Source: Candidatus Kerfeldbacteria bacterium
GTDB taxonomy: Bacteria > Patescibacteriota > Patescibacteriia > UBA9570 > XYC2-FULL-38-9
DNA length: 64,000 bases
Direction: 5' to 3'
Assembly (NCBI GenBank): GCA_016182555.1
Contig: JACPGJ010000007.1
Span: 128,053-192,052, forward strand
The number at the start of each line of letters is the position of its first letter. Within the stretch, counting starts at the first letter, position 1. This document shows, one piece after another, positions 1-49,100 of this stretch. A program made the position numbers and the translations under genes. A model generated the notes under the pieces. The model made no database searches. It was not told the DNA's origin and saw only the letters and a program-made list of their open reading frames with translations.

Positions 1-205
1 GCTGAGTCTTTGCTGTTTTCTTTTTAGTGGATTTCGCGGTGCGGTGTGCTGTCGGTTTTGCTTTGCGAATCCGTGAAGCAGAAGAACGCCTCTTTTTTGT
101 AGCGATTTTCTTCTTTTTTTTCTGCGGTTGTGGGCGCGATGATTGTTTCTTTCGTTTGGACGGTTGCTTTTTTGCCATAGTGAAACATTAAATAAAAGTC
201 AGGTC

Positions 206-2062: not shown

Positions 2063-2082
2063 GCTAATGATCTCTGGCGGCT

Positions 2083-26033: not shown

Positions 26034-26069
26034 AGAATGAATATATTATACCATATATAGAAAATAATT

Positions 26070-27221: not shown

Positions 27222-27223
27222 AA

Positions 27224-28177: not shown

Positions 28178-28198
28178 ACATGCTATCTATTATCGCAA

Positions 28199-30109: not shown

Positions 30110-30114
30110 AGTGA

Positions 30115-30846: not shown

Positions 30847-30862
30847 ACCTCAACAAATGAAA

Positions 30863-31390: not shown

Positions 31391-31411
31391 ATCGTACGTG
31401 TAGTGTAGCAG

Positions 31412-33403
31412 TTAATAACGAAGCTGGCGATTCAAATCGGAGATGGCATCAAATTCCGCTTGCATGAGCGTGTCTTTTCCGCTTTGCGCCCATTGACGAA
31501 TAATCTCTTCCACTGGCACTGTTTTTTCTAAACTTTCTTTTCCAATAGATAAATACAGTTGGTGCAGTGGACTCGCAAACCACGCTTGCATGCCTTCCGC
31601 TTTTTTCGATAACGATTCTTCTTCCAGTAAAGCCAGTTTATCAATAATATGTTTGGCGGCGTCTTGTGGTTGTTCAGCAAGGCGGCGGAAATCTTCCAGA
31701 TTCATATTTTGTAATTCTTCGAGTGGACCCATCACCACTGGCTGTGCGGCTTCTTGACTGTCATGCGAAAAAGATGCCCCCGATTGTGCTGCAGCAAATT
31801 GTCCCGGATGAACAATATCGGTCATGATTGATTTTTTATTTGTGTTATTCATATCCATTGTATCAAAAATAGGGTTCATATTGGCGAACATATCTTCGAC
31901 CATAATATGAGCACTTGCTTGTTCCTCCGCACGCTTGGCATCATGTTTTTTTTGACGGTCAATCTGTTCTTGCACCATGGCAAGAGTGGGGGCAAATATG
32001 TTTGAAGGTTGCGTTGTCTTCACCCGTTTAGTTTCTTTGCCGCCCTGCAAGGCTTGTTGATACAATTCATCAGCCGTGTGCAAAATGGTATCTACTTGTG
32101 CAGCGGGAATATTCACTCCCCCTTCTTGTGAAGGCCGGGTCAATGCATCGCGTGCCTCTGGTTTGCTGCGCACTCCCCGCAAATACGACACGACAATACT
32201 CAAAAACCGTTTTTCTAATTCCAGCGATTCAAATAACAATTTGTATTCACCTAACACATGTTGGGCGACCGTATGATATTGGTGATCGCTCAACAATAAT
32301 GGAGATTCAGCAACATCAGTAACAGCGGGGGTAGACACAACTGGCAGTGGAGGCACAGGCATTGGTGGGAGTGGTTGGGGTGTTGGAAGCTGAGGCAATG
32401 GGAGTGGCGAAGCTGGCGGCTGCACTGTTTTCTTTGGTGGAGGGGGGAGCGGCATCGGTGGCAGTGGAGGCACAGGAGCAACAGTCTTTTCTTCTCCAAT
32501 AACCACTGGTTGGGCATACATTTTTACCGCTTTCTTTACTTGTTTGGAAATAGGAAGCGGTTTGCCGTGGTCGTCTAACCCCGCCAAAAAACGCATAGCC
32601 TTTAACTCCGGCTCTGGTATGGGAACATGGGTATCTTCGACCACCCCCATATCAAAAAGATGCACCGTTCCGGTGACCGGGTCATCAAAATAAAACGTCG
32701 ATTCAGAACCTTCCGGTGTTTTAGAGGAGAGTGATAATTTATGGTCAAACTTTAACAAATGTTCAATGCGTTCTTTATCATCAGCGGACAGGGCTTGTAC
32801 ATTTTTACTGGAATTCATGTACTCCACAATCAACAACGGTTCTGGTTTACGGGTCGCTAAAAATTCTTTCCAATCGTGAAGCCAGCTGGCGATACTTGGT
32901 TCCACTGTCGTTGTCCCAATGGTGATATCTGTTTTACCAATATGTGCAGTCGACCGTGACAATGCTTCACGATATTTCTGCTTTACCACATCACGCTCAC
33001 CATAATCATCAATAATCAACAACCGACGTTTCAATTTGCGCAAAATCTCTTCGAAGTCTTTTTTAAATAGCCCTTCTCCATGGCGTGAAAGAACATTTTC
33101 CACTTCCGTTGGCGCTAAATCACCAATCACAAACCATTTCGCTTCGGCCATCACCGTTTCTAATTCTGCATAGAGACCCGGTTGTTGTTTGTCTAGCTCC
33201 GGATACTTCGTGCTGATAAGCTTTTGAATACTATTCACCAAATGAAATACTGTATCATTATCGTTATCGTCCAACGCCGTATTCAAAGCATGAATGGCTT
33301 TATTGATTCCATCTGGTGTATTCAATTCAAAAGATTCCAGTGGTCGGGCAATGGGTGGTACGGCTGGTGCTGTTGGCATATTTTTTTGTATTGGTGTATC
33401 CAT
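31412..33403 (-). CDS. T4SS-cluster hypothetical protein with a central proline-rich tract
   Basis: 663 aa. No clear TM helix. Pro-rich region (PPLPPMPLPPPPKKTVQPPASPLPLPQLPTPQPLPPMPVPPLPV). Confidence 0.4.
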   Translation of the reverse strand: MDTPIQKNMPTAPAVPPIARPLESFELNTPDGINKAIHALNTALDDNDNDTVFHLVNSIQKLISTKYPELDKQQPGLYAELETVMAEAKWFVIGDLAPTEVENVLSRHGEGLFKKDFEEILRKLKRRLLIIDDYGERDVVKQKYREALSRSTAHIGKTDITIGTTTVEPSIASWLHDWKEFLATRKPEPLLIVEYMNSSKNVQALSADDKERIEHLLKFDHKLSLSSKTPEGSESTFYFDDPVTGTVHLFDMGVVEDTHVPIPEPELKAMRFLAGLDDHGKPLPISKQVKKAVKMYAQPVVIGEEKTVAPVPPLPPMPLPPPPKKTVQPPASPLPLPQLPTPQPLPPMPVPPLPVVSTPAVTDVAESPLLLSDHQYHTVAQHVLGEYKLLFESLELEKRFLSIVVSYLRGVRSKPEARDALTRPSQEGGVNIPAAQVDTILHTADELYQQALQGGKETKRVKTTQPSNIFAPTLAMVQEQIDRQKKHDAKRAEEQASAHIMVEDMFANMNPIFDTMDMNNTNKKSIMTDIVHPGQFAAAQSGASFSHDSQEAAQPVVMGPLEELQNMNLEDFRRLAEQPQDAAKHIIDKLALLEEESLSKKAEGMQAWFASPLHQLYLSIGKESLEKTVPVEEIIRQWAQSGKDTLMQAEFDAISDLNRQLRY

Positions 33404-33446
33404 AGGTTCAATGGCGCATGTAAATTATGGTTGTTGTCTACGGCGT

Positions 33447-36400
33447 TTATTCCTCGTCACTTATAATATTATTTTTTTTGTTTTTATTGGATTGAGTGAA
33501 GACTCCATCACGTACCGCGCGAATAAATTCTTCCGGTACACCTAAATTTTTTAAATTCTCTGGATCGGATGCATCGCTATGTTTAGCAATATAGTCACGA
33601 ATACGCTGACGCGTTAATTCTTTCAACCACCGGAAACCCGTTTCGTAGGAATAATCGTGGCCGTAGCGAATCAATTTCTGAATATCGCTTGGAGCGAGTG
33701 TTGTATCATTACCTTCTACGACACCAAAAACGGTATTGGCCACATTGCTTGCCTGCCGCCTGTTAATACCACCAGCTTGTAGAGCCGCCCGTTCATCCTT
33801 CCCGCGCGGACGCATCACTCCAGCAGCGTTTGAAACGTATGCCGCATCCAAATCAATATTGTCGTCAGTAAATTTTGCCACTAACTTCTGCATATAACGC
33901 ATAGATTCTTGATCACTCATTCCTAACTCCTCCTTTAAATGGTGGGTACGGAATGCTTCCATGGCGCCGTGTCCGGACCCTGCATGCGCGCGGGCATCTG
34001 CATTATCACTTTGACGCAAATACTGGTCAAAACCGAACCATAATAACCCGCCCGTTTCTTGCAAGCGTTTGTGCACCGCTTCGGCCAAATATCGATTTTT
34101 TTCTTTTTTGGCACGAGTTAAATAACCCATCAATTCTGTACCATCATCAATATTCTGCACTTGCTGGTACTGTTCATCTACCAATTTTTTGTGTTCAGGG
34201 TTACTCGTGTGTCGGCGTGCTTCCAATGTTGCAGACTCAGCCGTTGCGGCAACCAGTTGGCGTTCGCGTTCTGATAATTCATTATCTAAAATACTTCCTG
34301 CATTGTCGAAGAAATCAGCCGTTGCCGGATCAATAACATGCACGTCATGTTGATCATCATTACGTCGAACATACTCGTTTTTCACTTTATTCAATGAGCT
34401 ATTTAATGCTCCTGTTAAACCTAAACGTAGTGCCCCTGGCGCATAGGAGCCATGTTGCTTAAATAATTTTTTAGAATTAATACTTCCCTCACGCAACGCC
34501 TGTTGCACACGTTCAATTTGAGCTTGAAGAGCCGTCTTATCCTCCGGGGTAGTCGCTGCGGCTAAATCTGTTTTCAATTGTGCAATAAGATCTTGAATAA
34601 ACCGACGAACTGGCTCAATAGTCGTATCCAATCTGGTATCTGCGTCTGACATGACACCAGATCGCATATTTAATAAACTCCTTGTGTGCTCATCTTGTGA
34701 ACGATAATTTTTATTATAATCTTCCAAACGTTTCTTTTGATCATAGAGCCCCTCATCCAACTTATACATATCTGCTCCAAAACGGCGCTCTAACTCTGCA
34801 TCAATATCCGCCTCTGAAGGGGGTGGTGTTCCTGCTCTTTGCGCTGCAGCAGTTAATTCTGCGGCGAGTTCTGGTCTGGCTTTCTGTTTATTTTTTCTAA
34901 TCTTTCTTCTCATCAAAAGACCAAAAGAATTTTCTGCTTTATCGGCTAACCGTTTATATGTTCGTAGACTTAATGGATCATAATCTTCATATACCTTTAC
35001 GGCATCATCAGATGTCACCCCAATGCCAATGCCGGTCAAATTATCCATACTGGCAAATGCACCGTTCATATAGCCATGGCCCATAATATCACGATCCGCC
35101 ATCCCTCTCGCCCTCTTCTTAGATTCATTCAAAAAGACTTCCTGTTTTCGTTCGCTGGCTTTAGAAACGCCCGTTTTCAAATTCTTCCACGCTTTGCCAG
35201 GGTCGGAAAGCACGGTATTGGTAAAATGAGAAAAGTTATCGAGTGGTTGTAACACGTTGGAAGCAAATCGCGATGCACCACGTGCTCTAGCGGAACGATC
35301 GTCATCACTGGCAATGGCATCCAGCCGGCCACGGGCGCTTGACAATGCACGACCAGCCAGATATTGCTGATTGAGACGATAGCTGGCTTGACGAGCTGCA
35401 CCCAATAACTTCCCCGCTCCTTGGCGCACTTGGCTAAGCTGTTTCGTAAATTCTGTGGCCATCTCGTTCACCATTTTCAAAGACGCGGCTAACATCAACA
35501 TCATGACAATGTAATTCACAATGGTGGCCGGCGTTACGGCCCGCAACTGGCCGGTTTCTGGTGATTTCGAATACGTAGCAGGTAGCTGGGTTTGCACCTT
35601 TTCGTCAAACGCTCCATTTAAGGGTGACCCATTGTACCCATACGCCGTATCGGCCTGTGTGCCATACGCAATAGAAAGAGACAACCATAAGAAAAATGTA
35701 ATGAGGGGGCCAACGATGACATAACGCCCAAACATATCCCACCATTTTTGCGCAATACGGCTTTGGGTTTGGGGTAAAATGCGCCCAATCCAGGCAAGCG
35801 GAGAAATGGATATGAGAAACCAGAGCATGACGATGCGGAAAATGAGCGTCACCACATAGACCGTAAGAATAATGGAAAGCCCGGTTAACATGAAACCCGC
35901 AGCGGCAAAACCAGCAATCAAAAACGGTAACCCCTTAAGATCACTAACTACGGAATCTGAATCTCCTAAAGATAAATCCAATATTGATGCCGGGTTCAAA
36001 ACACCCAAAATATTTCGCCCAATCGCATTGCTAAACGAGCCGCCAAACGTGGCCATGGCAACTGTCGCCGCATCGGTGAATACGCCACAAATCGTACGGG
36101 AAAAATTGATTAAAATAGCCGCAATAATAAAATCAGGTAGCGTTTTTTTCCACGAATATTTTTCAATACGCAACACCGTACCTAAAGCGATGATGATAAG
36201 AATCATGGAGAAAAAAATGTTGCAAACATCACGCACCAGCTTCCATGACGTTACGACACCGGGGACATTCACAAATGCGGAGCGCGCATCTGCGCCGATG
36301 AATACGGATTGCCAGACATCGCCGTAGGGGTAGGTAATAACAATATCTAAAATAAAAGCGAGAATCATAGCAATAATCCCATTGATCATAATGGGAACAT

Positions 36401-36671
36401 AGTAAATAAATGCAAGAATCACGCGTGCCACTGAACCAATAATGCCGCTTGACTGCGCATATACCACCGGCACTCCGTTAAACGACATGATTATACCGGC
36501 AATACTGAGGCCAACGATACACACCCCGCCCCAATAAGCGGTTTTTTTGAAAATTCTGCGTGTTTTTTGTTGAGAGAGATAAAAAAATACCCGTACTTTT
36601 GGAAAATACTGGACTGTTTTGCTGCCTATCGTGCGGCAAAAATTGATAATACGCTGGTAAAACCGATTCAT
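33447..36671 (-). CDS. VirB6/TrbL-like polytopic T4SS channel protein with a large C-terminal coiled-coil domain
   Basis: 1074 aa. First ~400 aa contain at least 7 TM helices in a TrbL/VirB6-like arrangement. About 650 aa of charged, helical, TM-free sequence follows. Resembles Gram-positive PrgH/TcpH-type VirB6 proteins. Confidence 0.5.
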   Translation of the reverse strand: MNRFYQRIINFCRTIGSKTVQYFPKVRVFFYLSQQKTRRIFKKTAYWGGVCIVGLSIAGIIMSFNGVPVVYAQSSGIIGSVARVILAFIYYVPIMINGIIAMILAFILDIVITYPYGDVWQSVFIGADARSAFVNVPGVVTSWKLVRDVCNIFFSMILIIIALGTVLRIEKYSWKKTLPDFIIAAILINFSRTICGVFTDAATVAMATFGGSFSNAIGRNILGVLNPASILDLSLGDSDSVVSDLKGLPFLIAGFAAAGFMLTGLSIILTVYVVTLIFRIVMLWFLISISPLAWIGRILPQTQSRIAQKWWDMFGRYVIVGPLITFFLWLSLSIAYGTQADTAYGYNGSPLNGAFDEKVQTQLPATYSKSPETGQLRAVTPATIVNYIVMMLMLAASLKMVNEMATEFTKQLSQVRQGAGKLLGAARQASYRLNQQYLAGRALSSARGRLDAIASDDDRSARARGASRFASNVLQPLDNFSHFTNTVLSDPGKAWKNLKTGVSKASERKQEVFLNESKKRARGMADRDIMGHGYMNGAFASMDNLTGIGIGVTSDDAVKVYEDYDPLSLRTYKRLADKAENSFGLLMRRKIRKNKQKARPELAAELTAAAQRAGTPPPSEADIDAELERRFGADMYKLDEGLYDQKKRLEDYNKNYRSQDEHTRSLLNMRSGVMSDADTRLDTTIEPVRRFIQDLIAQLKTDLAAATTPEDKTALQAQIERVQQALREGSINSKKLFKQHGSYAPGALRLGLTGALNSSLNKVKNEYVRRNDDQHDVHVIDPATADFFDNAGSILDNELSERERQLVAATAESATLEARRHTSNPEHKKLVDEQYQQVQNIDDGTELMGYLTRAKKEKNRYLAEAVHKRLQETGGLLWFGFDQYLRQSDNADARAHAGSGHGAMEAFRTHHLKEELGMSDQESMRYMQKLVAKFTDDNIDLDAAYVSNAAGVMRPRGKDERAALQAGGINRRQASNVANTVFGVVEGNDTTLAPSDIQKLIRYGHDYSYETGFRWLKELTRQRIRDYIAKHSDASDPENLKNLGVPEEFIRAVRDGVFTQSNKNKKNNIISDEE

Positions 36672-36728
36672 TTTTGGGTCATCACTGCTGTTTGTACAGC
36701 ATCTAAAATACGAATTAATGACTATTTC

Positions 36729-36737
36729 ATTATATCA
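36729..36737 (-). promoter_or_regulatory. extended -10 promoter (TGnTATAAT) upstream of the VirB6-like operon
   Basis: Minus strand reads TGATATAAT, about 55 nt upstream of the ATG at 36671. No convincing -35. Confidence 0.3.
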
Positions 36738-36792
36738 TATTCTTGAGTTTTTTGCCACATCAGATTTGGGGAAACCTGTTTAAATGATGTAT

Positions 36793-36830
36793 TTTTGACA
36801 TATTTGGAAGGGTGTGCACAACACATGCGC
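36793..36830 (+). repeat. copy A of a conserved ~40-nt element (TTTTTGRCATATTTGGARGGGYGTGCACARCAMATRC) with an internal TGTGCACA palindrome
   Basis: tttttgacatatttggaagggtgtgcacaacacatgcgc. Aligns almost base-for-base with copies at 41149 and 41927, all in the same orientation. Confidence 0.7.
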
Positions 36831-37003
36831 AAAAATGGAAAACATGGAAAACCACCATGCAGTTGACAGCAAAAACAGTCTTAAGTATTATTATCGTAGA
36901 AGCATGCAGTAACAACTTACGGGACACCCTTAGTGTTCCCTTGGCCTTGCTGAGGCTTAAGCTGAGGATACATGTGGCCTGTAAGACGCTGCTTCAATAA
37001 AAT

Positions 37004-37033
37004 ACTCAATCCAGAACGGTTGAGTTTTTTGTT
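37004..37033 (+). terminator. weak candidate rho-independent terminator (plus-strand orientation)
   Basis: ACTCAA-tccagaacgg-TTGAGT followed by TTTTTTGTTT. Only a 6-bp stem with a 10-nt loop. Confidence 0.25.
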
Positions 37034-37047
37034 TACCTAAAATTTTT

Positions 37048-37692
37048 CTATAAAAAAAGCTGCTTTCCTTTCACTATTTTATTCTGCAAAATAGCATAAA
37101 ATTCTTTGCCGAGCGATTTATTGTTCACATACGCTGCTAACGCACCGGTAATCCAATCGGCGATTTGTATATTCACGTGTTGATCAGATTCGAGCATCTT
37201 CACAGCAATACGTGATCCGAGCGGTATACGTGAAAGTATTCTCGCATAAATAAATTTACAAAATTCTTGCTGATGCATATCTTTTAAATGACGTTTGTCA
37301 CAATAAATGTAGAGTTCTTTTGTTTCTATAGGAAAATATAAATCGATATTTTGCGTCACGATTTCCGCATAAAGATATCCACTTTTCAGCTGTCGTTTAT
37401 ACCAAAATTCCTGTGGGATATCTTTGTGAGAAACAATGGTATAGCAAATACGAATATCTAAATCCGCAATGTGCTGTATAGTTTTTAATCGTAATTTTTG
37501 ACTAATCTCACAATCATTGAACTTGATCTCCATTTTATAACGTCTATTTATTGGAAAATGTTTGCGTTGCCATGTATGAAAACTTTTGGCGGTTTGTTTT
37601 GGATTTGTTGTCGAAAAAGAACCAATAACAAAATATGGCTGTTGGGGATTTTTTGTTAATTGACCACTTTCATCTAAAAATATTGCGTACAT
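37048..37692 (-). CDS. DUF3800 family protein
   Basis: 214 aa. N-terminus MYAIFLDESGQL matches the Y-x-DESG start characteristic of DUF3800 (RNase H-like fold) proteins. Lies within an AT-rich segment. Confidence 0.55.
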   Translation of the reverse strand: MYAIFLDESGQLTKNPQQPYFVIGSFSTTNPKQTAKSFHTWQRKHFPINRRYKMEIKFNDCEISQKLRLKTIQHIADLDIRICYTIVSHKDIPQEFWYKRQLKSGYLYAEIVTQNIDLYFPIETKELYIYCDKRHLKDMHQQEFCKFIYARILSRIPLGSRIAVKMLESDQHVNIQIADWITGALAAYVNNKSLGKEFYAILQNKIVKGKQLFL

Positions 37693-37813
37693 AAAATAAA
37701 AACACGGCCTAGGGAAGGCGTGTCCAACGCTGCTATTTTACCATGATGTACGCTTGAGTCAAACACACTATTAAAAAGAAAAACCTCTAGTGCGCTGATT
37801 CAATAAACCGGCT

Positions 37814-38182
37814 TCACATTTTGAAGAGTACCCACTTTTCGTTTTTCTTTTTGAATGGTGGGAAGAGGCTGAGTACAAACGTTATCGGAATCATGAGGTA
37901 GTAATATTGCCATTCAACGTTTATTTGATACGCCACAATAACCGCACCAATCAATACGCAGATGATGAAATAATTCAATCTATTTTTGTATAACTCTTCG
38001 CGAATGCTCAGTATGTCGCTATTTTTACCATAAAAAGGAACAAGGAGAATAACCATCCAGAAACACGCTTGCAATGCCGTAAACAGATCACTATTATTTT
38101 TTTTATAGATAAAAATACATACGAGCAAATAGATGTTTGCGGCAATAAAACGCACTTTATTTCGTTGAATATTTTTCCACAT
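37814..38182 (-). CDS. small integral membrane protein (about 3 TM), immunity-protein-like
   Basis: 122 aa, AT-rich codon usage, three hydrophobic helices, last gene of the small-membrane-protein array. Confidence 0.35.
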   Translation of the reverse strand: MWKNIQRNKVRFIAANIYLLVCIFIYKKNNSDLFTALQACFWMVILLVPFYGKNSDILSIREELYKNRLNYFIICVLIGAVIVAYQINVEWQYYYLMIPITFVLSLFPPFKKKNEKWVLFKM

Positions 38183-38495
38183 ATCTTTTTTTTATTTCTT
38201 CAGCCAATGATGGGACTCTGCATTTTGAAAGAAAAAAACAGAAACCAATATATATAGCCACTAAGCGCAACCATGGATATTGTGGCAACAATACATGCAA
38301 TGCTTTTGCATACATGACCGCTATACCGACTCCAACGAATATCGCATACAACAAGAATTTTCTATGAAGTATAAAATATGCATGACGATTACTAAAGTGA
38401 TATATAAACCAACGTGTCTCATCTACCGCGAGCAAGAGTCCGACAATAACCATAATGATAGAAGCAATGGAGAAAATCATATATAACAATTTCAA
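38157..38495 (-). CDS. small integral membrane protein (about 3 TM), immunity-protein-like
   Basis: 112 aa, three hydrophobic helices, lysine-rich C-terminus. Confidence 0.35.
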   Translation of the reverse strand: MKLLYMIFSIASIIMVIVGLLLAVDETRWFIYHFSNRHAYFILHRKFLLYAIFVGVGIAVMYAKALHVLLPQYPWLRLVAIYIGFCFFLSKCRVPSLAEEIKKRYVEKYSTK

Positions 38496-38704
38496 ATACC
38501 CTGCTTATTTATTGAATTCATGCGTTTCTTTTTTTTCGATCGCCGTTTTAAATACTCATCAACTTTGCTTGAAATCCAAATAGTTGAGGATATCGTTAAA
38601 AATGTTTCCCAGTATGGTTGATCAGATGGTCTATGTAGCAGTGTTACCGCTACTGTCAGAATGGCTGAAATTATTAACAGCCATATTACATCCGCATATT
38701 TCAT
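38492..38704 (-). CDS. small membrane protein, paralog 4 of a tandem family with a conserved P-x-x-x-(Y/F)W(E/D)xFL core and a Lys-rich tail
   Basis: About 70 aa from the internal Met (MKYADVIWLLIISAILTVAVTLLHRPSDQPYWETFLTISSTIWISSK..KRRSKKKKR). The ORF track's longer form starts at 38788 and overlaps the upstream paralog. Confidence 0.4.
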   Translation of the reverse strand: MKYADVIWLLIISAILTVAVTLLHRPSDQPYWETFLTISSTIWISSKVDEYLKRRSKKKKRMNSINKQGI

Positions 38705-38712
38705 AATACAGA

Positions 38713-38910
38713 CTATTTCTTTTTGAAAAAATAATACAATTGCTGAGTAACGATCAATATAACCCCAAGAAAAATAAAATGCAGCCACCTATCCCAAAAA
38801 GAGATATTTGAACGTGGTTGGAATGTATATCGTGCAAATGCTAGTAACCCACTACTGGATAAAAACAGTAATAGCCAAAGTAAAAATTGATTCTTTTTAC
38901 TTTTCAACAT
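38713..38910 (-). CDS. small membrane protein, paralog 3 of the tandem family
   Basis: 65 aa: ..LLAFARYTFQPRSNISFWDRWLHFIFLGVILIV..FFKKK. Confidence 0.4.
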   Translation of the reverse strand: MLKSKKNQFLLWLLLFLSSSGLLAFARYTFQPRSNISFWDRWLHFIFLGVILIVTQQLYYFFKKK

Positions 38911-38982
38911 AGCGGGTAACGCTTAAACTTTCCATTTTAATATCTGCTTTAAAACTTCCAGAACCATCTCGCCACCACTATC

Positions 38983-39186
38983 TTATTTTGTATCTCTTTT
39001 CTTTTTACGAACTTTTTTTGACCGCTCAGAGAGAATCAACGTAATAGTTATCGCGGCAAAACCAATAAGAAACCGCTGTAAATAACTTGACCCTTCTGGT
39101 TGAATATAGGTAAGAACTCCGGCCAATATCGCACTGATTACAGCAATCAATAGAATGTCAGCAATTCGTTTATTTATATCCACCAT
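38983..39186 (-). CDS. small membrane protein, paralog 2 of the tandem family
   Basis: 67 aa: ..AVISAILAGVLTYIQPEGSSYLQRFLIGFAAITITLILSERSKKVRKKKRDTK. Confidence 0.45.
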   Translation of the reverse strand: MVDINKRIADILLIAVISAILAGVLTYIQPEGSSYLQRFLIGFAAITITLILSERSKKVRKKKRDTK

Positions 39187-39243
39187 TTTAATATCTGCTT
39201 CACAAGAACTTTAAATCAGGATCGACAGTAACAGATTCATATT

Positions 39244-39444
39244 TTACTTCTTCTTTTGCTGGTTTCTCTTAGAACGAATAAATGAAAGGACTAATACCAA
39301 TACAACACTCCCCCAAGTCAATAGAAATCTTTCCCAATAATTTGAACCCTCAGGTTTATCTATATATGTAGCAACTCCTGCCATGAATGCAGCGACCACT
39401 CCAGCAAGAATAGCCTCACTCAGGAATCCGATCATACCCACCAT
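39244..39444 (-). CDS. small membrane protein, paralog 1 of the tandem family
   Basis: About 67 aa from the internal Met: MVGMIGFLSEAILAGVVAAFMAGVATYIDKPEGSNYWERFLLTWGSVVLVLVLSFIRSKRNQQKKK. Clearly alignable with paralog 2. The track's longer ORF (to 39588) would overlap the upstream secreted-protein gene. Confidence 0.45.
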   Translation of the reverse strand: MVGMIGFLSEAILAGVVAAFMAGVATYIDKPEGSNYWERFLLTWGSVVLVLVLSFIRSKRNQQKKK

Positions 39445-40505
39445 TTTAATAAGAACTTTGTCGTGTTTACAATCTGTTGTTTTATCCAATACTGTGCAGA
39501 ATTTGGTAAAACTTTGAACACCCCCATCGTGGCACCTGATATAGCGCATCCCCAAGCAGCTTGTTCTAATTTTTCTTTCCAATACCAATCATTTCTTTGT
39601 ATCGCCCACCGTACTGCATCAATACCAATACCACCAATAACCGTATTGACACAAGCACGAGCAGCTAAAACAATAGCAGTAGTTACTGCTGCTGGAATCC
39701 AAAAAGGATCTGCAGTAACAGGATATGAAATTCCTTCCACATTATGGAGAATATGTTGAGTAAGTGTTTGACCATCTGTGGTGAAATAAGTTTCAACATC
39801 ATTCCCAGCAGCATCTTTTGCCCAGGGAGTGGCAACCATGGCGATCGGTTCATTGTTTTCATCTACAACCACTGCTCCTCCATCTTCAGTCAGTTCAATG
39901 TGGCCGCCAGATGGCACGGTGACGGTATACGCATATTCTGTTGGTGCTTCGGGGTTATCAATAACCGTAAGCATACGCACACCACCTTCTACGTCCGCTT
40001 GTACGGCGTTTGCTGAACCATCTTTTGCCGGGTATGCAACAACACCGTCTGCGATTCTTTTTGCGTTTTTCGCTTCATCAGCATTGGGCAAGCCAATCTC
40101 AATCGTTGTGCCGTCTTCCGTACCCAATGTTACTCCATCTTCTGGATTTTTCGGAATATCAACAATTGTACCATCTTCTGTGGAAGTGATAATCGCTGAA
40201 TCTACATCGCGATCGACTACAATATCTTCAGAAGTTTCGAGTACACCAGAAAGACTTTCCAATGCCTCTTTCACCTCCGTTTTCGATACGTTCATTGAAT
40301 GATCCGTATCCGCTTGTTCGAGAACGGTAATTTCCGGCTCTGTTTCTAATGCTGTTGAATCTACCGGTTCCACAACAGCAGGTGATTCGTTTGTACCTTC
40401 CGCGCTCAATTCTTGCGCACGCACCAACTGCGGTGCAACGCTCATAAAAACAAATGAAAACACCATCGTACTCGAAAGCACTTTTGAGAAGACGCCCGTC
40501 CTCAT
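39432..40505 (-). CDS. secreted protein: signal peptide, acidic Thr/Glu/Asp-rich region, and a hydrophobic Trp/Gly-rich C-terminal domain (candidate membrane-active toxin or bacteriocin-like domain)
   Basis: 357 aa. Signal peptide (MVFSFVFMSVAPQLVRAQE). C-terminal ~110 aa (AVTTAIVLAARACVNTVIGGIGIDAVRWAIQRNDWYWKEKLEQAAWGCAISGATMGVFKVLPNSAQYWIKQQIVNTTKFLLKWWV). Immediately followed by the small membrane protein array. Confidence 0.45.
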   Translation of the reverse strand: MRTGVFSKVLSSTMVFSFVFMSVAPQLVRAQELSAEGTNESPAVVEPVDSTALETEPEITVLEQADTDHSMNVSKTEVKEALESLSGVLETSEDIVVDRDVDSAIITSTEDGTIVDIPKNPEDGVTLGTEDGTTIEIGLPNADEAKNAKRIADGVVAYPAKDGSANAVQADVEGGVRMLTVIDNPEAPTEYAYTVTVPSGGHIELTEDGGAVVVDENNEPIAMVATPWAKDAAGNDVETYFTTDGQTLTQHILHNVEGISYPVTADPFWIPAAVTTAIVLAARACVNTVIGGIGIDAVRWAIQRNDWYWKEKLEQAAWGCAISGATMGVFKVLPNSAQYWIKQQIVNTTKFLLKWWV

Positions 40506-40769
40506 AATTTTAAAATAAATGATTAAGTTACTTCTAGTGTATCACGTGCGTCCACCGCGTCAATATGCGACTTATCCACAATTATTTTATTATTTTTGTA
40601 GCCGTCTCTATTTCGCCAATTAACGAAATGCTTTTAACATTAACTCTTTTTCGACTTTTTTCTTAAAGATTTTTCCACCGCAGAGCCGTCGCTTACTGAT
40701 TCGTGAAATACAGCATTAACTCTTGTAAGAAATAATACCGTAGGATAAACTATGTGTTGACGCCCCTGT

Positions 40770-41366
40770 ATGGCCACAGCAGCCAGCAGGACGTTTTTAT
40801 TTTTCTTATTATTAACAAGTAACGCTATGTACATCATGTACGTTGATGTGACGCACCTGTTACAAGAAATTCCAGTCACTTTATTTTCGGTTGCTATTCA
40901 TAAAGCGGCATATTGGCAACAATACCCTTCTCAAAATCCATACGAAATTGCCTATATATTTCTCATTGAACAATATCAAAAATTTCTCCAAGCAAAAGAT
41001 GCACTAGGAATTTGTATTATTGATCCACGAGAGGGACAAGTACACAAGTCTTTTATTGGCCTTGAGCTTGATCAGATTCACCACTTAATGCAATGGGAAA
41101 AAAGTGATTCCTGGCATCCATGCCCAAATGTTATCGAGCGCGTGCTATTTTTTGGCATATTTGGAGGGGTGTGCACAGCAAATACACATGGGCTTGACTG
41201 TTTTTTCAATCATGATATACTATATATATCACCACGAAGAGCGCCCTATACGGTTCCGTCCGCATGGGGTTCTTTTCTTTTTGTGCTCATTTTTTCTGCT
41301 AGATCACTCACAAAAGAGATGTATTTTGAATCAAACTTTTTTAACAGCCCAGAATATTTTCGTTGA
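40770..41366 (+). pseudogene. low-confidence ORF or degenerate gene remnant spanning repeat copy B
   Basis: 198-aa ORF with no recognisable N-terminal motif. Overlaps the NYN gene on the opposite strand by about 120 nt and contains the conserved repeat. Region is otherwise an ~740-nt gap. Any resemblance to a DUF3800 C-terminal region is weak. Confidence 0.15.
41149..41190 (+). repeat. copy B of the conserved ~40-nt element
   Basis: tttttggcatatttggaggggtgtgcacagcaaatacacatg, followed by ggcttgac, which also follows copy C. Confidence 0.7.
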
Positions 41367-41764
41367 TTTGGAATAAGTAGTTTTTTTAATTTTTCCTGTT
41401 CAATGAAATATTGAACCAAACAGTGAAAATCACCATCTCCAGTAATGATGACTGCTTGATGATAATTCTGATATTCAATCATGGCGTGCAGCACCAATTC
41501 TGCATCACAATTCCCTTTTGTCTTGCCATCTTTATACATGAGTGTTGGTTTGAAAATACAGATGTATCCTGATTCTTGCAAATAGTGATAGAGCTGCTGA
41601 TGACCAGGAATATAACCAATAAACAAAAAAGCTTTCTGCACGGAATATTTTTCTTTTAAGTAAATTCGAAAACGAGCAAAATGTAACTTCCATCCTAATG
41701 CCCGAATACTCAAATTAAGATTTTGACTATCAATGAAGGCATAATTGTTTTCTTTTGTTAGCAT
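41246..41764 (-). CDS. NYN-domain (LabA/Zc3h12a-like PIN-fold) putative ribonuclease
   Basis: 172 aa. N-terminal AFIDSQNLNLSI (the DG-x-NL start of NYN domains). Downstream GNCDAELVLHAMIE and AVIITGDGDFHCLV, corresponding to the NYN SGDSDF acidic motif. Confidence 0.55.
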   Translation of the reverse strand: MLTKENNYAFIDSQNLNLSIRALGWKLHFARFRIYLKEKYSVQKAFLFIGYIPGHQQLYHYLQESGYICIFKPTLMYKDGKTKGNCDAELVLHAMIEYQNYHQAVIITGDGDFHCLVQYFIEQEKLKKLLIPNQRKYSGLLKKFDSKYISFVSDLAEKMSTKRKEPHADGTV

Positions 41765-41926
41765 AGAACTATTTTTAAATATAAAACGCCCACAGAAAAA
41801 TAAGGGCGTCCATCAATATAATACATGAAACAGTTACTGAGTGCAAGGATGCACTTTCATGCTATCTACATAAAAAAGGTGGTGAAGAGTATTAAAATAA
41901 TTGCGTCAATTCCGTCAATTTCTCGG

Positions 41927-41968
41927 TTTTTGGCATATTTGGAGGGGCGTGCACAGCACATGCACGGA
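41927..41968 (+). repeat. copy C of the conserved ~40-nt element
   Basis: tttttggcatatttggaggggcgtgcacagcacatgcacgga, followed by agcttgac. About 200 nt upstream of the Asp/Cys-repeat gene. Confidence 0.7.
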
Positions 41969-42163
41969 AGAGCTTGACAAAATGGATGTTTTGGGAGTAG
42001 GCTTGGGGTAGATTTGTGCAAAGTGTGCCTTGAAAGAGGTGTGCTTTGCACTTGAAAATATGCCCGTGTTTTTATTCGCGTCGTTTGCAAAGCCAGCCTA
42101 TGGTTGGTTTGGCAATGCAGCGACGCGGCTACAATCAATGGCCGGGACTTCAAACCGGCCGGT

Positions 42164-42169
42164 TAGGAG
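42164..42169 (+). promoter_or_regulatory. Shine-Dalgarno sequence (AGGAGG) for the Asp/Cys-repeat gene
   Basis: AGGAGG 5 nt upstream of the ATG at 42175 (MRNWLLVLTALLGG signal peptide). Confidence 0.6.
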
Positions 42170-42174
42170 GGGTT

Positions 42175-42933
42175 ATGCGGAACTGGCTGTTGGTGCTCAC
42201 CGCCCTCCTTGGGGGGTTGGTGAGCGGTGGTTTTTCGTCGGCGCTCGCGGCCGACGTAGACGGCGACGGGTTTTACGGAACCACAGAGTACTGTGGTTCC
42301 GATGACCAAAACTATTATTATTGGTGTGACTGCAACGACGACGACCCCGCCATCAATCCCGAGGCGACGGAAGATTGCGACGGCGTCGACAACGACTGCG
42401 ACGGCCAAGTCGACGAGGCCGGTGATGACGGTGATCTGGACGGCTTCACAGATGATCCGTGTAACGATACGGACGACTGCGATGACACGAATCCGTCCAT
42501 GAACCCCGGCGCGGTCGAATTCTGCGACAACGCGGATAACGATTGTGATGGGACCATCGATGAAGGGGTTACCGTAAAGTACTACGTGGACGCAGACGGA
42601 GATGGGGCTGGTGATGCGAACACCGACCCCGTAGAAGCCTGCGATGGGTATGGTCCCGCAGGCTATTCAATCGGAGGTGACTGCAACGATAGCAACTCCG
42701 ACATCCGTCCAGGAACTGTCGAAACAGTTTGCGACGACGGCATCGACAACAACTGCGATGGGACTATCGATGAAGACACCGAATACTGCCTGGATGAGGA
42801 CGAAGGTGGCCTCGGGGAGGTGATTCCTGGGGGATGTTCTACATCTCCCGGCGCGCCACCCACCCGAGGGTGGGGAATCCTCGGCCTCGTCGTCGGCATC
42901 CTCGTCGGCTTTCGCCGCAGCAGCACGCGCTGA
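42175..42933 (+). CDS. secreted Asp/Cys-rich repeat protein (MopE-like putative metal/calcium-binding CxDxDCDG repeats) with C-terminal TM anchor
   Basis: Signal peptide. Repeated motifs (CDCNDDDPAINPEATEDCDGVDNDCDGQVDE; CDDTNPSMNPGAVEFCDNADNDCDGTIDE; CNDSNSDIRPGTVETVCDDGIDNNCDGTIDE). C-terminal hydrophobic segment GWGILGLVVGILVGF plus basic tail. The ORF track start at 42046 is rejected for the SD-preceded Met at 42175. Confidence 0.55.
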   Translation: MRNWLLVLTALLGGLVSGGFSSALAADVDGDGFYGTTEYCGSDDQNYYYWCDCNDDDPAINPEATEDCDGVDNDCDGQVDEAGDDGDLDGFTDDPCNDTDDCDDTNPSMNPGAVEFCDNADNDCDGTIDEGVTVKYYVDADGDGAGDANTDPVEACDGYGPAGYSIGGDCNDSNSDIRPGTVETVCDDGIDNNCDGTIDEDTEYCLDEDEGGLGEVIPGGCSTSPGAPPTRGWGILGLVVGILVGFRRSSTR

Positions 42934-43090
42934 ACAAGCGCAAACACGGGCAAGCGGGTGTAGAGACACAACAACATGGACGACCCATGTCTCTGCCCCC
43001 GCACAGCCTTAGTAAATATTTCTTCATGGTTGCTGTCATACTTCGACAAGCTCAGTATGACATGAGGAAGAAGTATGTAGTAAAGCAAAA

Positions 43091-43124
43091 ATCACCCCGC
43101 TTTTTTGGCGGGGTGATTTTTTTA
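43091..43124. terminator. bidirectional rho-independent terminator between convergent genes
   Basis: AAAAATCACCCCGC-ttttttg-GCGGGGTGATTTTTTT: perfect 10-bp GC-rich stem with an A-run on one side and a T-run on the other. Sits between the stop of the 42175..42933 gene and the stop (43122-43124) of the giant gene. Confidence 0.65.
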
Positions 43125-46100
43125 TGGTTTTACGTAGATGGTCTGGGTGTATTCGTCATAGGAAGTACAATCGCCATAATCAGTACGTACATTGTCACCA
43201 TCGGCTTCACCACTATGGATATCGCCGCTACAGAAATCCCAATTATCTTGAATCTGTACTTTAATATGGAATTCACACGCATACCGACCGGTATCATCAT
43301 CCGCATTCGGGTGATAATTTTCTGCCGGATTTGTTGGGTCACAAGTGTACACATACGTATACGAATGGCCAGGAGTAGACGCCGCTTCCCAATAATCGGT
43401 TTGTGCATCATTGGTATTGAACACGCTATCATCAGTGGCTTTCCAATCGATTTGAATTTGTTGCACCGGTTCTTGGTCTGGGTCGCTAGAGGAATCAAAA
43501 CCCAATATTACTGTATCGCCACTATCAATTACTATGGGTTCATTTGTATGTGTGTTCACCGTCATATTACTAATGCTTGGGCGAACGGCGCAATATTCGC
43601 TATCGTCTGTGCGCGTATTATTTTCACACACATCCATAGTGTCTGGATCTAAGAAATCGAAGGAACCATTTTCAGTGAATGCGGTTGGGAAGGTATCGTC
43701 AATTTTATCATCTTGGACAAAAGACAATAAACCCTCATTTCGTTTTGTATATGTAGAATCTTGGTTTGCAAACCACACCGTACGGCCTTGCATATCGGCA
43801 AAAAGTAACCGGTAACGTTTCCAGGCAATACTGGCGGCCGCGTTCAACTGGTCTAAATACGTAGTGTAATCTGCACCGACTCCGGCTCCGGAGAGCAAAC
43901 CACCAAAATTTGAACCGGAAGAACTAGAGCCACTCTCCTGTTCTTCAACATCGAGAATGCCGTCGCCATCATCATCGGTATCTATACTATCTATCATACC
44001 ATCATCGTCGTCGTCCGTATCATTAATATCTGGAATACCGTCTCCATCGGTATCTGTATCCATATCGATAGTAGTTTCCTCACTTGTATCACAACCATCT
44101 GTGCTACACCGTGCAGCGCTAAATGTTCCCTGGGTACTGAGGCTCGCCGCTGCAGTGGCTGGAGCAGCAGTAGCAGTATACGAAGCACCCATTTCACAAG
44201 TCGAACCCGCACCAACAGCCGTACAATCATCATTGCTATCGCAGACAACCGCTTGGCCATTCGGGTCTTTGGAGCTACAGATACCGGCTACTCCTATCCA
44301 GAGTGAATCGTTGGTACATGCACTCAAGGCAGTGGTCGGGCTGTAGGCGGTAGCATAATCGTTTTGGCAGACCGTGGCATTACACGAACCAATACACGCA
44401 TACGGCAGCGCCGACCCTTCACTTTGGTTTAAGTACACAAATGGTAAATTATCCTCTGCCGAAGCAGTGAAGTACGATAAACCATTATTTTTAATACCAT
44501 CAATTTGGCTAGGTTGACTGCCATTGTTGTCGCCACGCAGTGAACCAAACAATGCGTTCACTCCACTCATACTATACGTGTACCCGACATCAGGAATTTG
44601 ATAACCGGTGCTGCCCGTCACGCGTTCTTGCCATGGTGTGGCTTCGGCTTGTTCCGTTGCGCCTTCAACCAGCAACAAACACGGTTCTTTTAAGTAATAG
44701 GTCCAGGTCACTCCCTTCATATCACCAACATCCCAGCGGCGGATACCATCCCAATAAAACAAATATACTGCATCGAGATAACCATCGTTGAAGTCGAAAT
44801 TGACTCCAACAATATTAGCACCACAAGGACTACCGTCGCTACCATCATCACAATCACCATCGTAGATGGTATCAAAAGTACTAGGCACCTCATAATCTGA
44901 ACTGTAGCTATAACGACTGAAGAAATAATGGGCGTCTAAGGAAACACCATCTAGTGTTTGTGAACCTGCGTCTTCGGTACCGCTAATAACACCTTCAATG
45001 CCGTCACCTGCCCACGCCCCTGAACAAGCACCGGTGGTACATGACTTTAAACCAGAGAAACTAAATGGATTCAACGGTACAGAAGAATCGATACCATCTT
45101 CGATACTTTGATCATTATATACCGTATACATATCGGAATTGAAACCCTTAATCAGAAAACCAGCATCTTTACCGGTGACAGCTTTCACAAAAACCACATC
45201 CATGTCATTCAAACCGCTTTTAATAGAATCTTGCGTACAAATAGAACTACCACACCATACCCCAGACTGAAAAGCCGTAGCGGCATCTTCATTATTATCA
45301 TTGATTTCTTCGCCATCAAACGCACCAGAAAATTCTTCATAACCAGATTGATATAGTCGCGCCGTATTTTCTGGTTCTGGCAATGTTTCAGTCGATGTTT
45401 CTAAATCGGCGGTATCAAAACTTGTTTTACCGATCAACCAGGAATTACTCTCATGCGCGTAATTCTTCCCACCATAATTCTCTGGTGTACCAATATCAAA
45501 TGAGATACTGTCAATTTCTGAAACATGCACCAACTTATCTACATTGGAAGCCGGAAAGCGGCGGAATTTTGCGGCTTCAAGATTATCCTCATCATAATCT
45601 CCATGTGGATCATCATCAATATGCAAATCCACGGAATTGATAATTTTGTAGCCTTCGGTCGTTACGGTAACGGTTTCATTGTTTACGGTGTAGGTTGAGG
45701 TGCCATTGCCCAAACATTGACTATCTCCACAATCGCTTTTATCCGTACAAATAGTCCCATCGTCTAAACATGCGCCTAAATTCGCATTGCCCTTTGCCAC
45801 CAAACAATGGTACACCGGATATTTTTGTGAATAGCGCACCGCGGTACCACTGGAATTCTTGGAAGACCCGGCCACCGGCCACCACGCTACACAACGGCTG
45901 GAATCATTCAAATCTTGCTGTAAACAATATCCTTTCCAACCGGTATAAATAACCCCACTGTCATCAATGTAATCACAAGACAGCGAAGAATCTTCGGGGT
46001 ACGCACGGCAAGATTGGCCAATTAACCAAGCGGCATTATCAGAGTTCGGGTTATGTTGTTTATTCACTTCTATCGCCGGCTTCAACGATACATTATCAAT

Positions 46101-49100
46101 TACAAATGCCGGGTTATTCGCATCATTATCTTCGCGGAAAAACAAAGTGGAAGAAGAGGCTGGATCAAATTTATTTTCAATGGTGATCGGGCCAAGCACA
46201 TAGTGTTCGTAACTCGTGCTGAAGGTGAAATTGGAAACACTTGTCTGAATATCGGAGCTTATGTCGGTTAAAATAGTACTGTAGCTACCAGATATATCGT
46301 ACATACTCCCACCAAATGTTGGAGTAATGTCATTATATGCATAAACCGATGCAGGCTTCGTACAAGATGATTGGCCGCTGTCGCCACATGCGCTATTTAA
46401 CTCTTCCGCGTCACTCGCGATTGCCGGGCTATCATTACCAAACACAATGCTATAGAGGGTGTATGGTGTTTTCTGGAATTCGGCAATAAAATTTGTTTCG
46501 TCTGTTGGGTCCCATGCCGATGCGGTTTCCTCATCTTCTGCGGTGTCCGAATCGATATAGGTATCTTGTTCCGGCACAGTATCGGTAAGCAACACAATAA
46601 ATTGACCGGCGCCGGAACGAAAATCAATAGTACTGGTACCCGCACTATAGGTAAATGTGTTGTCAGCGATATTTTTTAATGCCTGGTAATTGTACGCCGA
46701 ACCACTTTCGAGATGGCCTGCGATAAAGTTCATGGCGGTTTGGAATGTGCTTGCACTGCTGGTCGTACTGGTGGTAATACCGTTGGTTGCACCATAATCA
46801 GTGGAGGCGTCACCACTGTCATCATAATCGCTGAAATCTAAAATTGCTGGGGTGCGGCCACCACCGGTAGTGACAATCGACACCTGGTAATCGATACCCG
46901 AATCTTCCAACCCTTGCACAATCGCACTGGTATTTGTAGCAATATTCGAAATATACGTTGACATACTCCCAGAAGCATCTATCACAAATACCAAATCTGC
47001 CTTCGCGTGGCCGGTTTCAAAATAATCCACATTTTCGAAATCGCTATCATGGGTGATGCCGATTTGCATCAAATCTTGCTCGGTCACATAATCAATAAAC
47101 TGTGCGTCAAAAGACAAGGTATATTCTTGACCCGGAATAATAGAACTCAAATCCACCGCCAGACCTTCTTGTGCACCGGTGGTTTGTGGCTGTACATACA
47201 TAACATTGTTCAAATCGAGTGTGGAGGCTGCCACTGCTGAACCTAAAACATCAACATCGGGGTGTGTATAATCTAATCCATCCTGGTAATCAATAATCAC
47301 CATTTGCGCATCACTCAGTGTGGTCCAATGGTTCCCCCCCCATATTTCGGTGGTTGTACCATCATCATTAACCGTTTGGACTACATTCTCACACCACCCT
47401 TGTTCATATTCAATATCTTCAATATTCGTATCAGTGGCTTTCTCAGCCTGCGCATCATCGCTAGCTATCACTGTTTGTACCACACTGTCGGTTTCAAGCG
47501 TGCGACAATGGTAATCCAGTGTACAGCTCATACTCTTATCACGCTGGCGTTCTAATTTGTTTACCGTAGAAGCATCGTAAATCAAATTTGTATCGGTGTA
47601 GCTGCCAATACCATCACAAGACACCTCTTCAAAATCACCCATCGGAACTAATTCGTCTTTCGCGCCACCCAAACCACGTTCAGGAATCCAATCTTCGGGG
47701 TAGTAGCCGTATGTTATTGCGTCTTCACACGTTGCATCACTATCACACACATTACCGCTGTTTGCTCCACCAACGCACGTTAGGCTGCTATCATCACAAT
47801 ATGCCCCAACCCATTGGCCACCAACCGAAGCGAACCCAGAGACATCAGCAATTTTTGCTAAATCAGAGGTATCACCAGGCTCCGAAACTACACTCACATC
47901 ATCATCATAACCAAGGGAACTAGCATCTGCTTGATCGGCCCATTGTAAACATTCACCCGTTGATTCATTTCGTTTTTTACACGTACGAATTTCCAAACAC
48001 GTTCCACCATTTTCGCTATCGCTGGTGCTATTGGGGTCCACTAAGGCGCACGCTAACCACTGCGCACATTCACGATCATTACGCACTTTCAGGATGGTAT
48101 TTGCATCTGCCGTATTCGGGCGAGAATCACAATTCGTGGTTCTGGTCGCCGCGTTGTATTCGCAGGTGGTAAAACTATACGACGTCTGCGTCTTGTTTGC
48201 TGCCGTTTGTTCTTCTTCTACGCTTGAAAGGTAAGATAATGAATCGTTCGTCGCATCACGGAACGCCACACAACCACTATCAATATTCACCACACCGGCG
48301 CAGGTATTTTCTTCCGATTCTGGTGCGCCATCAACGGAACTACTGATATAGGTATATTCCTCTTGCGGTGCAAATTCTAAGTTATCAAAGTAGACGGCTG
48401 AAGAATCATTTCCAGTTTCAATAAACACTTTCACGAAATAGGCATCAGCGGGAAATTCATGAATAAGATTCCGACCGATGGTTGCTTCAAAGCGAACCCA
48501 TTGATTGGTTGGAATCGTATCATCTGTTTCTGCACGGTCAACGCCTTCGTACGCCGCAATCGCATAATCAGAAGCAACATCATTTTCTACCGCTATCTCT
48601 TCACCTTGCAAATCGTAATAGAACAACCCAATCGCAAACGGCGTATCGGCGTTAGTCAGATACACATCTCCGGTGAGCGTATACATTCCATTCACATCAA
48701 CCGTGACCGTGTCTGATGTTGCCATACAATGTGTTGCGCTGTTCGTATTGGTGGCGAGCTTAAACGACATACCTGCATCAAAACTTGGTTCAGCGTCGCC
48801 AGAGACACCAAACGAATTACACGCAATAGTGGTTTGCGAATCGGCGTTGGCAAAAAATTCATTGCTGGTACCCGAACTTACCGCACTCCAGTTATCGGGA
48901 ATACCATCTGGAGAACCATCTGTGATATTCGTATTACTTCCTACATCTGTATTCATATTCCCGTTCGTCACCAAAGATTCCGTATTTGGGTCGACATATA
49001 AGGTACAACCAGCAAAATCATCATTACACGAACCGACCCAACCGGAATTGTCATCAACATTAGCAGAACAGCGGTGAATCACACCATCAGCGCCGGTACA

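Follow-up and report, generated by a model that had tools for sequence, protein, structure and literature searches.

Members of the candidate phyla radiation (CPR; Patescibacteria) have tiny genomes with few recognised mobile or defence elements, and their secretion machinery is thought to mediate an episymbiotic lifestyle. Genes of the DUF3800 family are associated with eleven different RNA motifs whose role is unexplained (Weinberg et al. 2017, PMC5737381). DUF3800 is also an accessory or effector domain in type VII retrons, where an N-terminal DE motif and a C-terminal QxxD motif have been described (PMC7736814), and it accompanies Cas12a2 and Cas12a3 (PMC10910872, PMC13594972). Here we describe a locus with a DUF3800 gene and one of these RNAs in a 64,000-nucleotide stretch of a Candidatus Kerfeldbacteria genome (contig JACPGJ010000007.1, positions 128,053 to 192,052 of the forward strand). 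The whole stretch is called the window, and all window coordinates count from its first nucleotide. Positions 36672-43121 are probably a variable insertion hotspot that lies in a conserved secretion-like gene cluster and has collected five or more independent accessory modules.

The window is chromosomal DNA and carries genes for DnaG, ClpB, RecG, RadA, KsgA, TsaD and TsaC/E and for three tRNAs. Its secretion-like cluster resembles a type IV secretion system (T4SS) and encodes a pilin, a DsbA-like protein, a VirB4/TraG P-loop protein, a TraC-like protein, PrgI, a 663-aa protein (p663) and a 1074-aa VirB6-like protein, after which comes the gene for a giant protein of 3594 aa. This CPR T4SS-like cluster (23021-36671 and 43122-53906) was collinear, with a giant gene of 3,500-3,650 codons, in three genomes: that of the window and two others, designated L011 and L012. 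The DUF3800 protein of the window was identical to a protein of a deposited Candidatus Kerfeldbacteria metagenome-assembled genome (MAG). A single sequencing run (SRR12113422) yielded two Logan contigs, one of which (L001) had 100% identity with the window across its full 5.6 kb; the other (L015) had an identical NYN protein together with copies B and C of the repeat element described below.

Comparison with L011 and L012 showed that the block interrupts an otherwise conserved order. Both genomes keep the arrangement of the window, namely giant gene, VirB6-like gene, p663, PrgI, TraC-like gene and VirB4, with identities to the window of 80-85% for VirB4 and 65-68% for the TraC-like protein. 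The end of the giant gene and the VirB6-like gene are separated in L012 by a 334-nt spacer with nothing inserted, and in L011 by 7.2 kb with four unrelated genes, an M23 peptidase gene among them. The corresponding gap in the window is 6.45 kb (36672-43121), and no gene in it was matched in L011 or L012. Like genomic islands, the block is missing from its syntenic relatives, and a first-pass annotation of the window, which had called it accessory and proposed a check against relatives, was correct on this point. That annotation had placed the island at 36700-41980; the AT-rich block is real, but the variable block is longer and includes a MopE-like gene. In all three genomes, the giant gene is followed on its 3' side by a terminator-like hairpin and the VirB6-like gene is preceded on its 5' side by an extended -10 promoter. 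Insertions between the two therefore leave both transcription units intact. The spacer DNA beside the VirB6-like gene was too divergent to be aligned with L011 or L012. No housekeeping gene was found within the variable block, in agreement with the first-pass reading, and the island DNA had no match in phage and plasmid collections.

The base composition of the block was not uniform. Mean GC content of the window is 0.44. Two parts of the block were AT-rich relative to all windows of the same length outside the region, 36672-39431 with a GC content of 0.352 (z -9.0) and 40506-41926 with 0.356 (z -5.0). Between them lies the gene for a 357-aa secreted protein, with a GC content equal to the genome average (0.443). 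The AT-rich segment that had been noticed by eye is real, but it is interrupted by this gene. GC content at third codon positions (GC3) was 0.29 in the DUF3800 gene, 0.30 in the NYN gene and 0.26-0.35 in five of six small open reading frames (ORFs), compared to 0.39-0.42 in core genes (ClpB, RecG, VirB4, the VirB6-like gene and the giant gene). Because GC3 is lowered in the island genes, the AT bias is not solely an amino-acid effect.

Each module of the block was also found alone, in other contexts, in other CPR genomes, and the block is a mosaic of independent modules rather than one island or system. The features are listed in Table 1. The gene content given in the first-pass annotation was right (Pfam DUF3800 at 52 bits, NYN at 41 bits, a 357-aa protein with a signal-peptide-like start and six hydrophobic ORFs). 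Its proposal of a defence or toxin-immunity island is plausible in flavour, given the polymorphic-toxin layout, the RNase H-like DUF3800 protein and the links of DUF3800 to retrons and Cas12, but it does not hold for the block as a single island. The DUF3800-V RNA beside repeat copy A, which is the most informative feature, had been overlooked, as had a DUF3800 pseudogene and the polymorphic-toxin nature of the secreted protein.

Table 1. Features of the variable block, in window coordinates.
Feature	Position	Strand	Details
Repeat copy A	36792..36830	+	85% identity to copy B; flanked by the VirB6-like promoter (36729-36758, minus strand) and that of the DUF3800-V RNA
Sigma70-like promoter of DUF3800-V RNA, TTGACA-17-TATTAT	36863..36891	+	11 of 12 consensus positions; -35 TTGACA invariant and in the same place in L003, L005 and L007
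DUF3800-V small RNA gene, Rfam RF02964	36898..36996	+	62.4 bits over the full model (1-96 of 96); gathering score 37.4
Likely bidirectional terminator	37004..37033	no strand	Hairpin with T/A runs at its sides, between the convergent RNA and DUF3800 genes; position conserved across loci
DUF3800 protein, 214 aa	37048..37692	-	RNase HII-like fold, DESG and QIAD intact; Pfam PF12686, 52.2 bits, gathering score 21
Small membrane protein, 122 aa	37814..38182	-	No family found
Small membrane protein, 107 aa	38157..38480	-	Hydrophobic segments
Small membrane protein, ~70 aa	38492..38704	-	A single clear hydrophobic segment (1-27); the 66- and 67-aa proteins are its paralogs (E 8e-7, 1e-5)
Small protein with two transmembrane segments, 65 aa	38713..38910	-	Weak paralog
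Small protein with two transmembrane segments, 67 aa	38983..39186	-	PEGS-Y loop, Lys-rich tail; 41% identity to 66-aa paralog, E 1e-14
Small protein with two transmembrane segments, 66 aa, candidate cognate immunity protein	39244..39444	-	Directly after the secreted-protein gene
Secreted polymorphic toxin-like protein, 357 aa	39432..40505	-	In order: signal peptide, acidic linker, beta-supersandwich, VTADP (aa 263-267), 90-aa Trp-rich helical C-terminal domain
Pseudogene fragment, second DUF3800 subfamily	40827..41150	+	Matches residues 88-192 of 265 in the intact relative P0335
Repeat copy B	41149..41187, to 41198 against C	+	Starts at most 2 bases from the end of pseudogene homology
Promoter-like TTGACT-16-TGnTATACT, then hairpin and U-run	41194..41283	+	Runs convergently towards the NYN gene and overlaps its 3' end
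NYN-domain nuclease gene, intact, 172 aa	41246..41764	-	Pfam PF01936, 40.8 bits, gathering score 24.2; bracketed by copies B and C (778 bp apart)
Repeat copy C	41927..41965, to 41978 against B	+	At the AT-rich to GC-rich switch
MopE-like Asp/Cys-repeat secreted protein, MYXO-CTERM-like tail	42175..42933	+	PF11617, 3 repeats; TIGR03901 19.8 bits, cut-off 20 (borderline)
Right boundary of the hotspot	43086..43121	no strand	GC-rich hairpin with A/T runs at its sides (sequence reading), directly past the giant-gene stop; similar hairpin after the giant gene in L012

The first module pairs the DUF3800 gene with the DUF3800-V RNA. The protein, a member of PF12686, has an RNase H-like fold, and residues D7, E8, S9 and G10 and Q176, I177, A178 and D179 were invariant in an alignment of 34 sequences that included it. 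Its nearest homologues had 41-50% identity, with named sources labelled CPR/Patescibacteria or 'bacterium'. The RNA had a fold z of -4.6, and compensatory double changes were present at 8 of 32 predicted pairs (4 sequences, each from a different locus). It is convergent on the DUF3800 gene, with its 3' end 51 nt from the stop codon. The same convergent arrangement was found in four more independent loci (L003/L004, L005/L006, L007/L008 and L014), and the distance from the RNA 3' end to the DUF3800 stop codon was 11-51 nt across the window and these four. The -35 sequence, the RNA and the terminator could be aligned across the loci, but the 40-nt repeat could not. The neighbouring genes were mutually unrelated and included LigT and MurD, NifU and an M50 peptidase with a tRNA, and a major facilitator superfamily (MFS) transporter. 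We propose that the RNA would be a dedicated partner that binds the DUF3800 nuclease and restrains, controls or guides it, and that the pair would form a self-contained ribonucleoprotein of the addiction or defence type.

Two of the other DUF3800-V loci had further features. In L014, an IMG/VR contig (UViG_3300025316_000245, positions 1-3642), the pair lies beside ORFs whose motifs, judged by eye, resemble those of a tyrosine integrase, of a rolling-circle Rep and of a Zot-like ATPase, which suggests that L014 may be a small mobile element carrying the DUF3800/RNA module. In L005 (6705-6910), the DUF3800-V RNA promoter is directly 3' of a tRNA gene, and a diversity-generating retroelement (bAvd and reverse transcriptase) is 2.3 kb away.

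The second module consists of the secreted protein and the small ORFs downstream of its gene. The N-terminus of the protein appeared signal-peptide-like by eye. There were 137 homologues at E ≤ 0.001, with named sources mostly Kerfeldbacteria or Saccharimonadales and a few other labels. Among the 120 matches listed, the alignment ended at residues 260-279 in 77, and the motif [VIL][TSV][AV]DP was present in 109. In a 59-sequence alignment A265, D266 and P267 were invariant, and most members had the form VTADP. The sequences after ADP were 65-110 residues long and fell into at least six unrelated classes: the Trp-rich helical class of the window, NRGGC...YYGGNCR, GRGMW...WCNNG, CLAVY...RC, Pfam DUF2599 and Pfam DUF6973. 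Two homologues, P0123 and P0140, had approximately 98% identity across the first ~185 aligned residues and different C-termini that could not be aligned past ADP. The toxin-like C-terminal domain had no sequence relative in the PDB. The same MAG encodes, on another contig, a 238-aa shortened paralog (P0122) with 86% identity to the secreted protein that stops before VTADP; it may represent a second, decayed toxin locus.

The secreted-protein gene is followed downstream by six ORFs, 65-122 aa long, that encode hydrophobic segments. Three, and possibly a fourth, form a tandem set of paralogs (65-70 aa) with PEGS-Y loops and Lys-rich tails. At the equivalent position in L010, where the secreted protein has a C-terminus of the same class as in the window, there are paralogs with two transmembrane segments and a PEG/PQG-AY loop, and in L009 small transmembrane ORFs also lie downstream of the homologous gene. 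A 50-aa ORF downstream in L009 (11194-11346) is a stand-alone version of the NRGGC...YYGGNC class, which other family members carry in fused form, and looks like an orphan toxin cassette. From its sequence, the secreted protein together with the small ORFs has the architecture of a polymorphic toxin/immunity locus, with predicted toxicity and immunity. The protein would be a Sec-secreted toxin in which a beta-supersandwich, probably for glycan or surface binding, is joined at the ADP tripeptide to an exchangeable C-terminal domain. The Trp-rich helical type in the window would be membrane-active, and the tandem paralogs with two transmembrane segments are putative immunity proteins.

The third module is a remnant. 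An ORF at 40770-41366 had no direct match to Pfam or to subfamily hidden Markov models (HMMs), and an exhaustive HMMER search with it recovered 17 relatives. All eight relatives that were scanned match PF12686, and full-length relatives have 227-273 aa. Homology to intact DUF3800 proteins (45-54% identity over 105 aa) ends at 41150, and the fragment lacks both catalytic motif regions, DESG and QxxD, and with them an intact domain. The N-terminus of the ORF, MYIMYVD, resembles the start MYIMYID of P0332, which points to an internal deletion of approximately 80 aa. By these features, the fragment is a dead DUF3800 gene. In L013, an intact relative, the gene is followed by a DUF3800-IX RNA in the same orientation, in contrast to the convergent arrangement seen with DUF3800-V RNAs. 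The DUF3800 gene of L013 (second subfamily; 48-830, on a 1.2-kb contig) appears to be frameshifted, with QIAD restored in another frame. No DUF3800-IX RNA was detected after the window pseudogene in a search to E 10.

The fourth module is the NYN gene, whose only match in the defence libraries was a weak one to the PADLOC NYN model. The hairpin opposite its 3' end (41236-41283) has a predicted folding energy of -21.6 kcal/mol (z -3.5), and the unit at 41194-41283 had no Rfam match. This stretch may once have terminated the decayed DUF3800 unit, or it may encode a small antisense RNA. We also considered the hairpin as a relic of the outer stem of a DUF3800-IX RNA, which was unsupported, as there was no DUF3800-IX match.

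The fifth module, the MopE-like gene, has the opposite compositional anomaly to the AT-rich parts in a genome of 0.44 GC, with a GC content of 0.59 and a GC3 of 0.67 (z +6.2). It is not in L011 or L012 and is part of the variable block. These properties suggest that the gene reached the hotspot recently from a donor of high GC content. A GC-rich leader of approximately 200 nt runs from repeat copy C to its start codon and contains a 16-bp perfect hairpin at 42016-42051 (z -2.6). At the far edge of the window, DNA that is again AT-rich (GC 0.34 at 63-64 kb) contains a DUF4143/AAA_14 ATPase gene (62547-63800), which may be another accessory insertion.

The first-pass annotation had reported three copies of a roughly 40-nt element in the same orientation, and these were confirmed. 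Identity of copies A and C to copy B was 85-92%, with 0 matches expected in shuffled sequences; the element can be represented by TTTTTGGCATATTTGGAGGGGYGTGCACARCA. In pairwise local alignments all three begin at one sharp left edge, TTTTTG; copy A aligned with B or C over 35-37 nt, and copies B and C aligned with each other over 50-52 nt. Single-strand folding of the copies was no better than that of shuffles (z -0.4 to -1.3). There were no further credible copies within the 64 kb and no inverted copy. Scans with the repeat pattern gave 0 matches in GTDB genomes and 0 in IMG/VR, and there were none in the loci of relatives examined. A single match in a JGI metagenome (L002) was rejected, as it lies inside an unrelated esterase gene and, by our estimate, ~2 chance matches are expected for a 21-mer. 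The repeat was also considered as coding sequence and rejected as such; a minus-strand frame is open in all three copies (VH[TA][PL]PNM[PS]K), yet the copies differ by non-synonymous changes and lie in dissimilar contexts. By eye, its motifs and spacing do not fit a sigma-54 promoter, an attC site or a terminator.

The repeats lie at module junctions, and our tentative preference is that they are recombination junction sites or scars where modules were added or deleted. The hotspot between the giant-gene terminator and the VirB6-like promoter has probably collected its modules (DUF3800 and its RNA; the toxin-like protein with the small transmembrane ORFs; the decayed DUF3800 gene; NYN; the GC-rich MopE-like gene), with the direct repeats (39-50 nt) as the candidate junctions or scars at which modules were gained or lost. 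It is possible, if somewhat doubtful, that the repeats are instead att-type core sites that remain from repeated site-specific integration (tandem accretion), with a recombinase that was lost or is encoded elsewhere in the genome. Direct repeats in one orientation at module boundaries, a pair (B and C) that brackets a single gene, a precise breakpoint at the edge of copy B and the related DUF3800/RNA pair beside a tyrosine-integrase-like gene in L014 are all consistent with such a history. However, a scan of 40 window ORFs, those of the island included (some ORFs of at least 150 aa were outside the scan), gave no domain of a recombinase, integrase or transposase, there was no tRNA or tmRNA target, the repeats are not tRNA-derived, and the copies are just 85-92% identical. 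In addition, the block runs 1.1 kb beyond copy C without a fourth copy, and the repeat is absent from L014 and from all other loci and collections searched. An att-like duplication, for which the first-pass annotation had proposed a check, is thus a possible but somewhat doubtful origin of the repeats.

The junction interpretation is also favoured over a regulatory one, which we consider unlikely. The repeats could be a cis-regulatory (operator or upstream) element copied along with promoters, which would place three rightward transcripts under one regulator: the DUF3800-V RNA, the hairpin RNA that lies opposite NYN and the mRNA of the MopE-like gene. The element holds an 8-bp palindrome, TGTGCACA, and a rightward site resembling a -35/-10 pair lies 5-35 nt 3' of each copy, both in favour of such a role. 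However, copy C is followed by a weak promoter (TAGGCT), the promoter spacing of copy A deviates, the DUF3800-V RNAs of four other genomes have no such upstream element, and the coincidence of copy B with a gene truncation point would be unexplained. A bolder idea, which we regard as improbable, is that CPR bacteria have an unrecognised cassette-accretion mechanism that acts in trans on the repeat as its site, in which each copy would head a unit of element, promoter and small RNA convergent on a nuclease gene; NYN and the hairpin transcript at 41194-41283 would then be a second, undescribed RNA-nuclease pair, built like DUF3800 and DUF3800-V. We give hardly any credence to the view that the AT-rich stretch is ordinary core genome, with a composition due to membrane proteins rich in Ile, Leu, Lys and Phe, and that the secreted protein and small ORFs are accessories of the secretion system. 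The block does adjoin the T4SS-like cluster, the membrane ORFs are rich in residues encoded by AT, and the secreted-protein gene has average GC, but GC3 is lowered too, the block is missing from the syntenic clusters of L011 and L012, the homologues of the secreted-protein gene in L009 and L010 are far from T4SS genes, and C-termini are swapped between near-identical proteins.

Several points weigh against the interpretation of the block as a hotspot whose modules are joined at the repeats. The nearest comparable genomes are distant, with VirB6-like homologues at most about 33% identical to the window protein and no VirB6-like relatives found in GTDB species representatives, and they do not fix the timing or direction of gain and loss. 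Low GC is common to DUF3800 genes as a family (L003, L005 and L007), and composition therefore cannot date a transfer. The small transmembrane ORFs had no detectable family, and their likeness to those of L010 is a short loop motif only, undetected by BLAST. As to the repeats, the scanned ORFs of the window offer no recombinase domain to act on them, the search for further copies in this genome covered these 64 kb, and a junction role would rest mainly on copy B abutting the pseudogene breakpoint. We infer all biochemical functions, as well as the role of the repeats, from sequence.

The locus is a concrete example of a CPR hotspot that gathers mobile and defence functions beside secretion machinery. 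The DUF3800 gene and DUF3800-V RNA form a compact 0.85-kb unit of two parts with a defined promoter and terminator, and provide a handle on the purpose of the long-unexplained DUF3800 RNAs. Most parts of the block are of known kinds (an Rfam RNA, DUF3800, NYN and polymorphic-toxin architecture); the less charted parts are the VTADP-delimited CPR family, of which we found no description in the searchable literature, and the junction repeat. The VTADP-delimited family may serve CPR cells in competing with one another or in interacting with their hosts.

Like integrase-built genomic and defence islands, the block has atypical composition, is absent from syntenic relatives, has direct repeats at junctions and carries nuclease and toxin cargo. 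It differs from them in having no integrase among the ORFs scanned, no tRNA target and imperfect repeats, in extending past its last repeat, and in carrying modules that are each found alone elsewhere. The secreted protein shares with polymorphic toxins (CDI, Rhs, MafB and LXG) a conserved secreted N-terminal part, unrelated C-termini swapped between near-identical proteins, small genes directly downstream and, in L009, one apparent orphan C-terminal cassette, and its VTADP demarcation motif is analogous to their VENN or PT-TG. Unlike in those systems, the pre-toxin domain of the VTADP family is a beta-supersandwich without a Pfam family, and export is apparently by plain Sec. Many of its C-termini are short (65-110 aa) and hydrophobic or Cys-containing, nearer to bacteriocins than to enzymes. 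The candidate immunity proteins are peptides with two transmembrane segments, the named family matches are mostly from Patescibacteria, and toxicity is a prediction from the genes.

The DUF3800/RNA module resembles type III toxin-antitoxin systems (ToxIN) and type VII retrons in the genetic coupling of a nuclease-fold protein to a dedicated structured non-coding RNA. In ToxIN, tandem antitoxin RNA repeats lie upstream of the nuclease gene and are co-transcribed with it, whereas the RNA in the window is single-copy and convergent and has its own promoter. Because it is single-copy and convergent, the pair is not of the ToxIN type. Type VII retrons (RT-DUF3800) have a reverse transcriptase, and the module in the window does not. 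The closest counterpart is the described set of DUF3800-associated RNA motifs (PMC5737381; RF02964), with which the window shares a full-length match to the model, a position adjoining a PF12686 gene on the opposite strand, an intrinsic terminator next to the RNA and a CPR host. There is no essential difference, and the window is a new instance. It adds to the RF02964 picture a -35 sequence that is invariant across loci, a stand-alone unit of two parts in unrelated neighbourhoods and, once, a position beside integrase-like and Rep-like genes.

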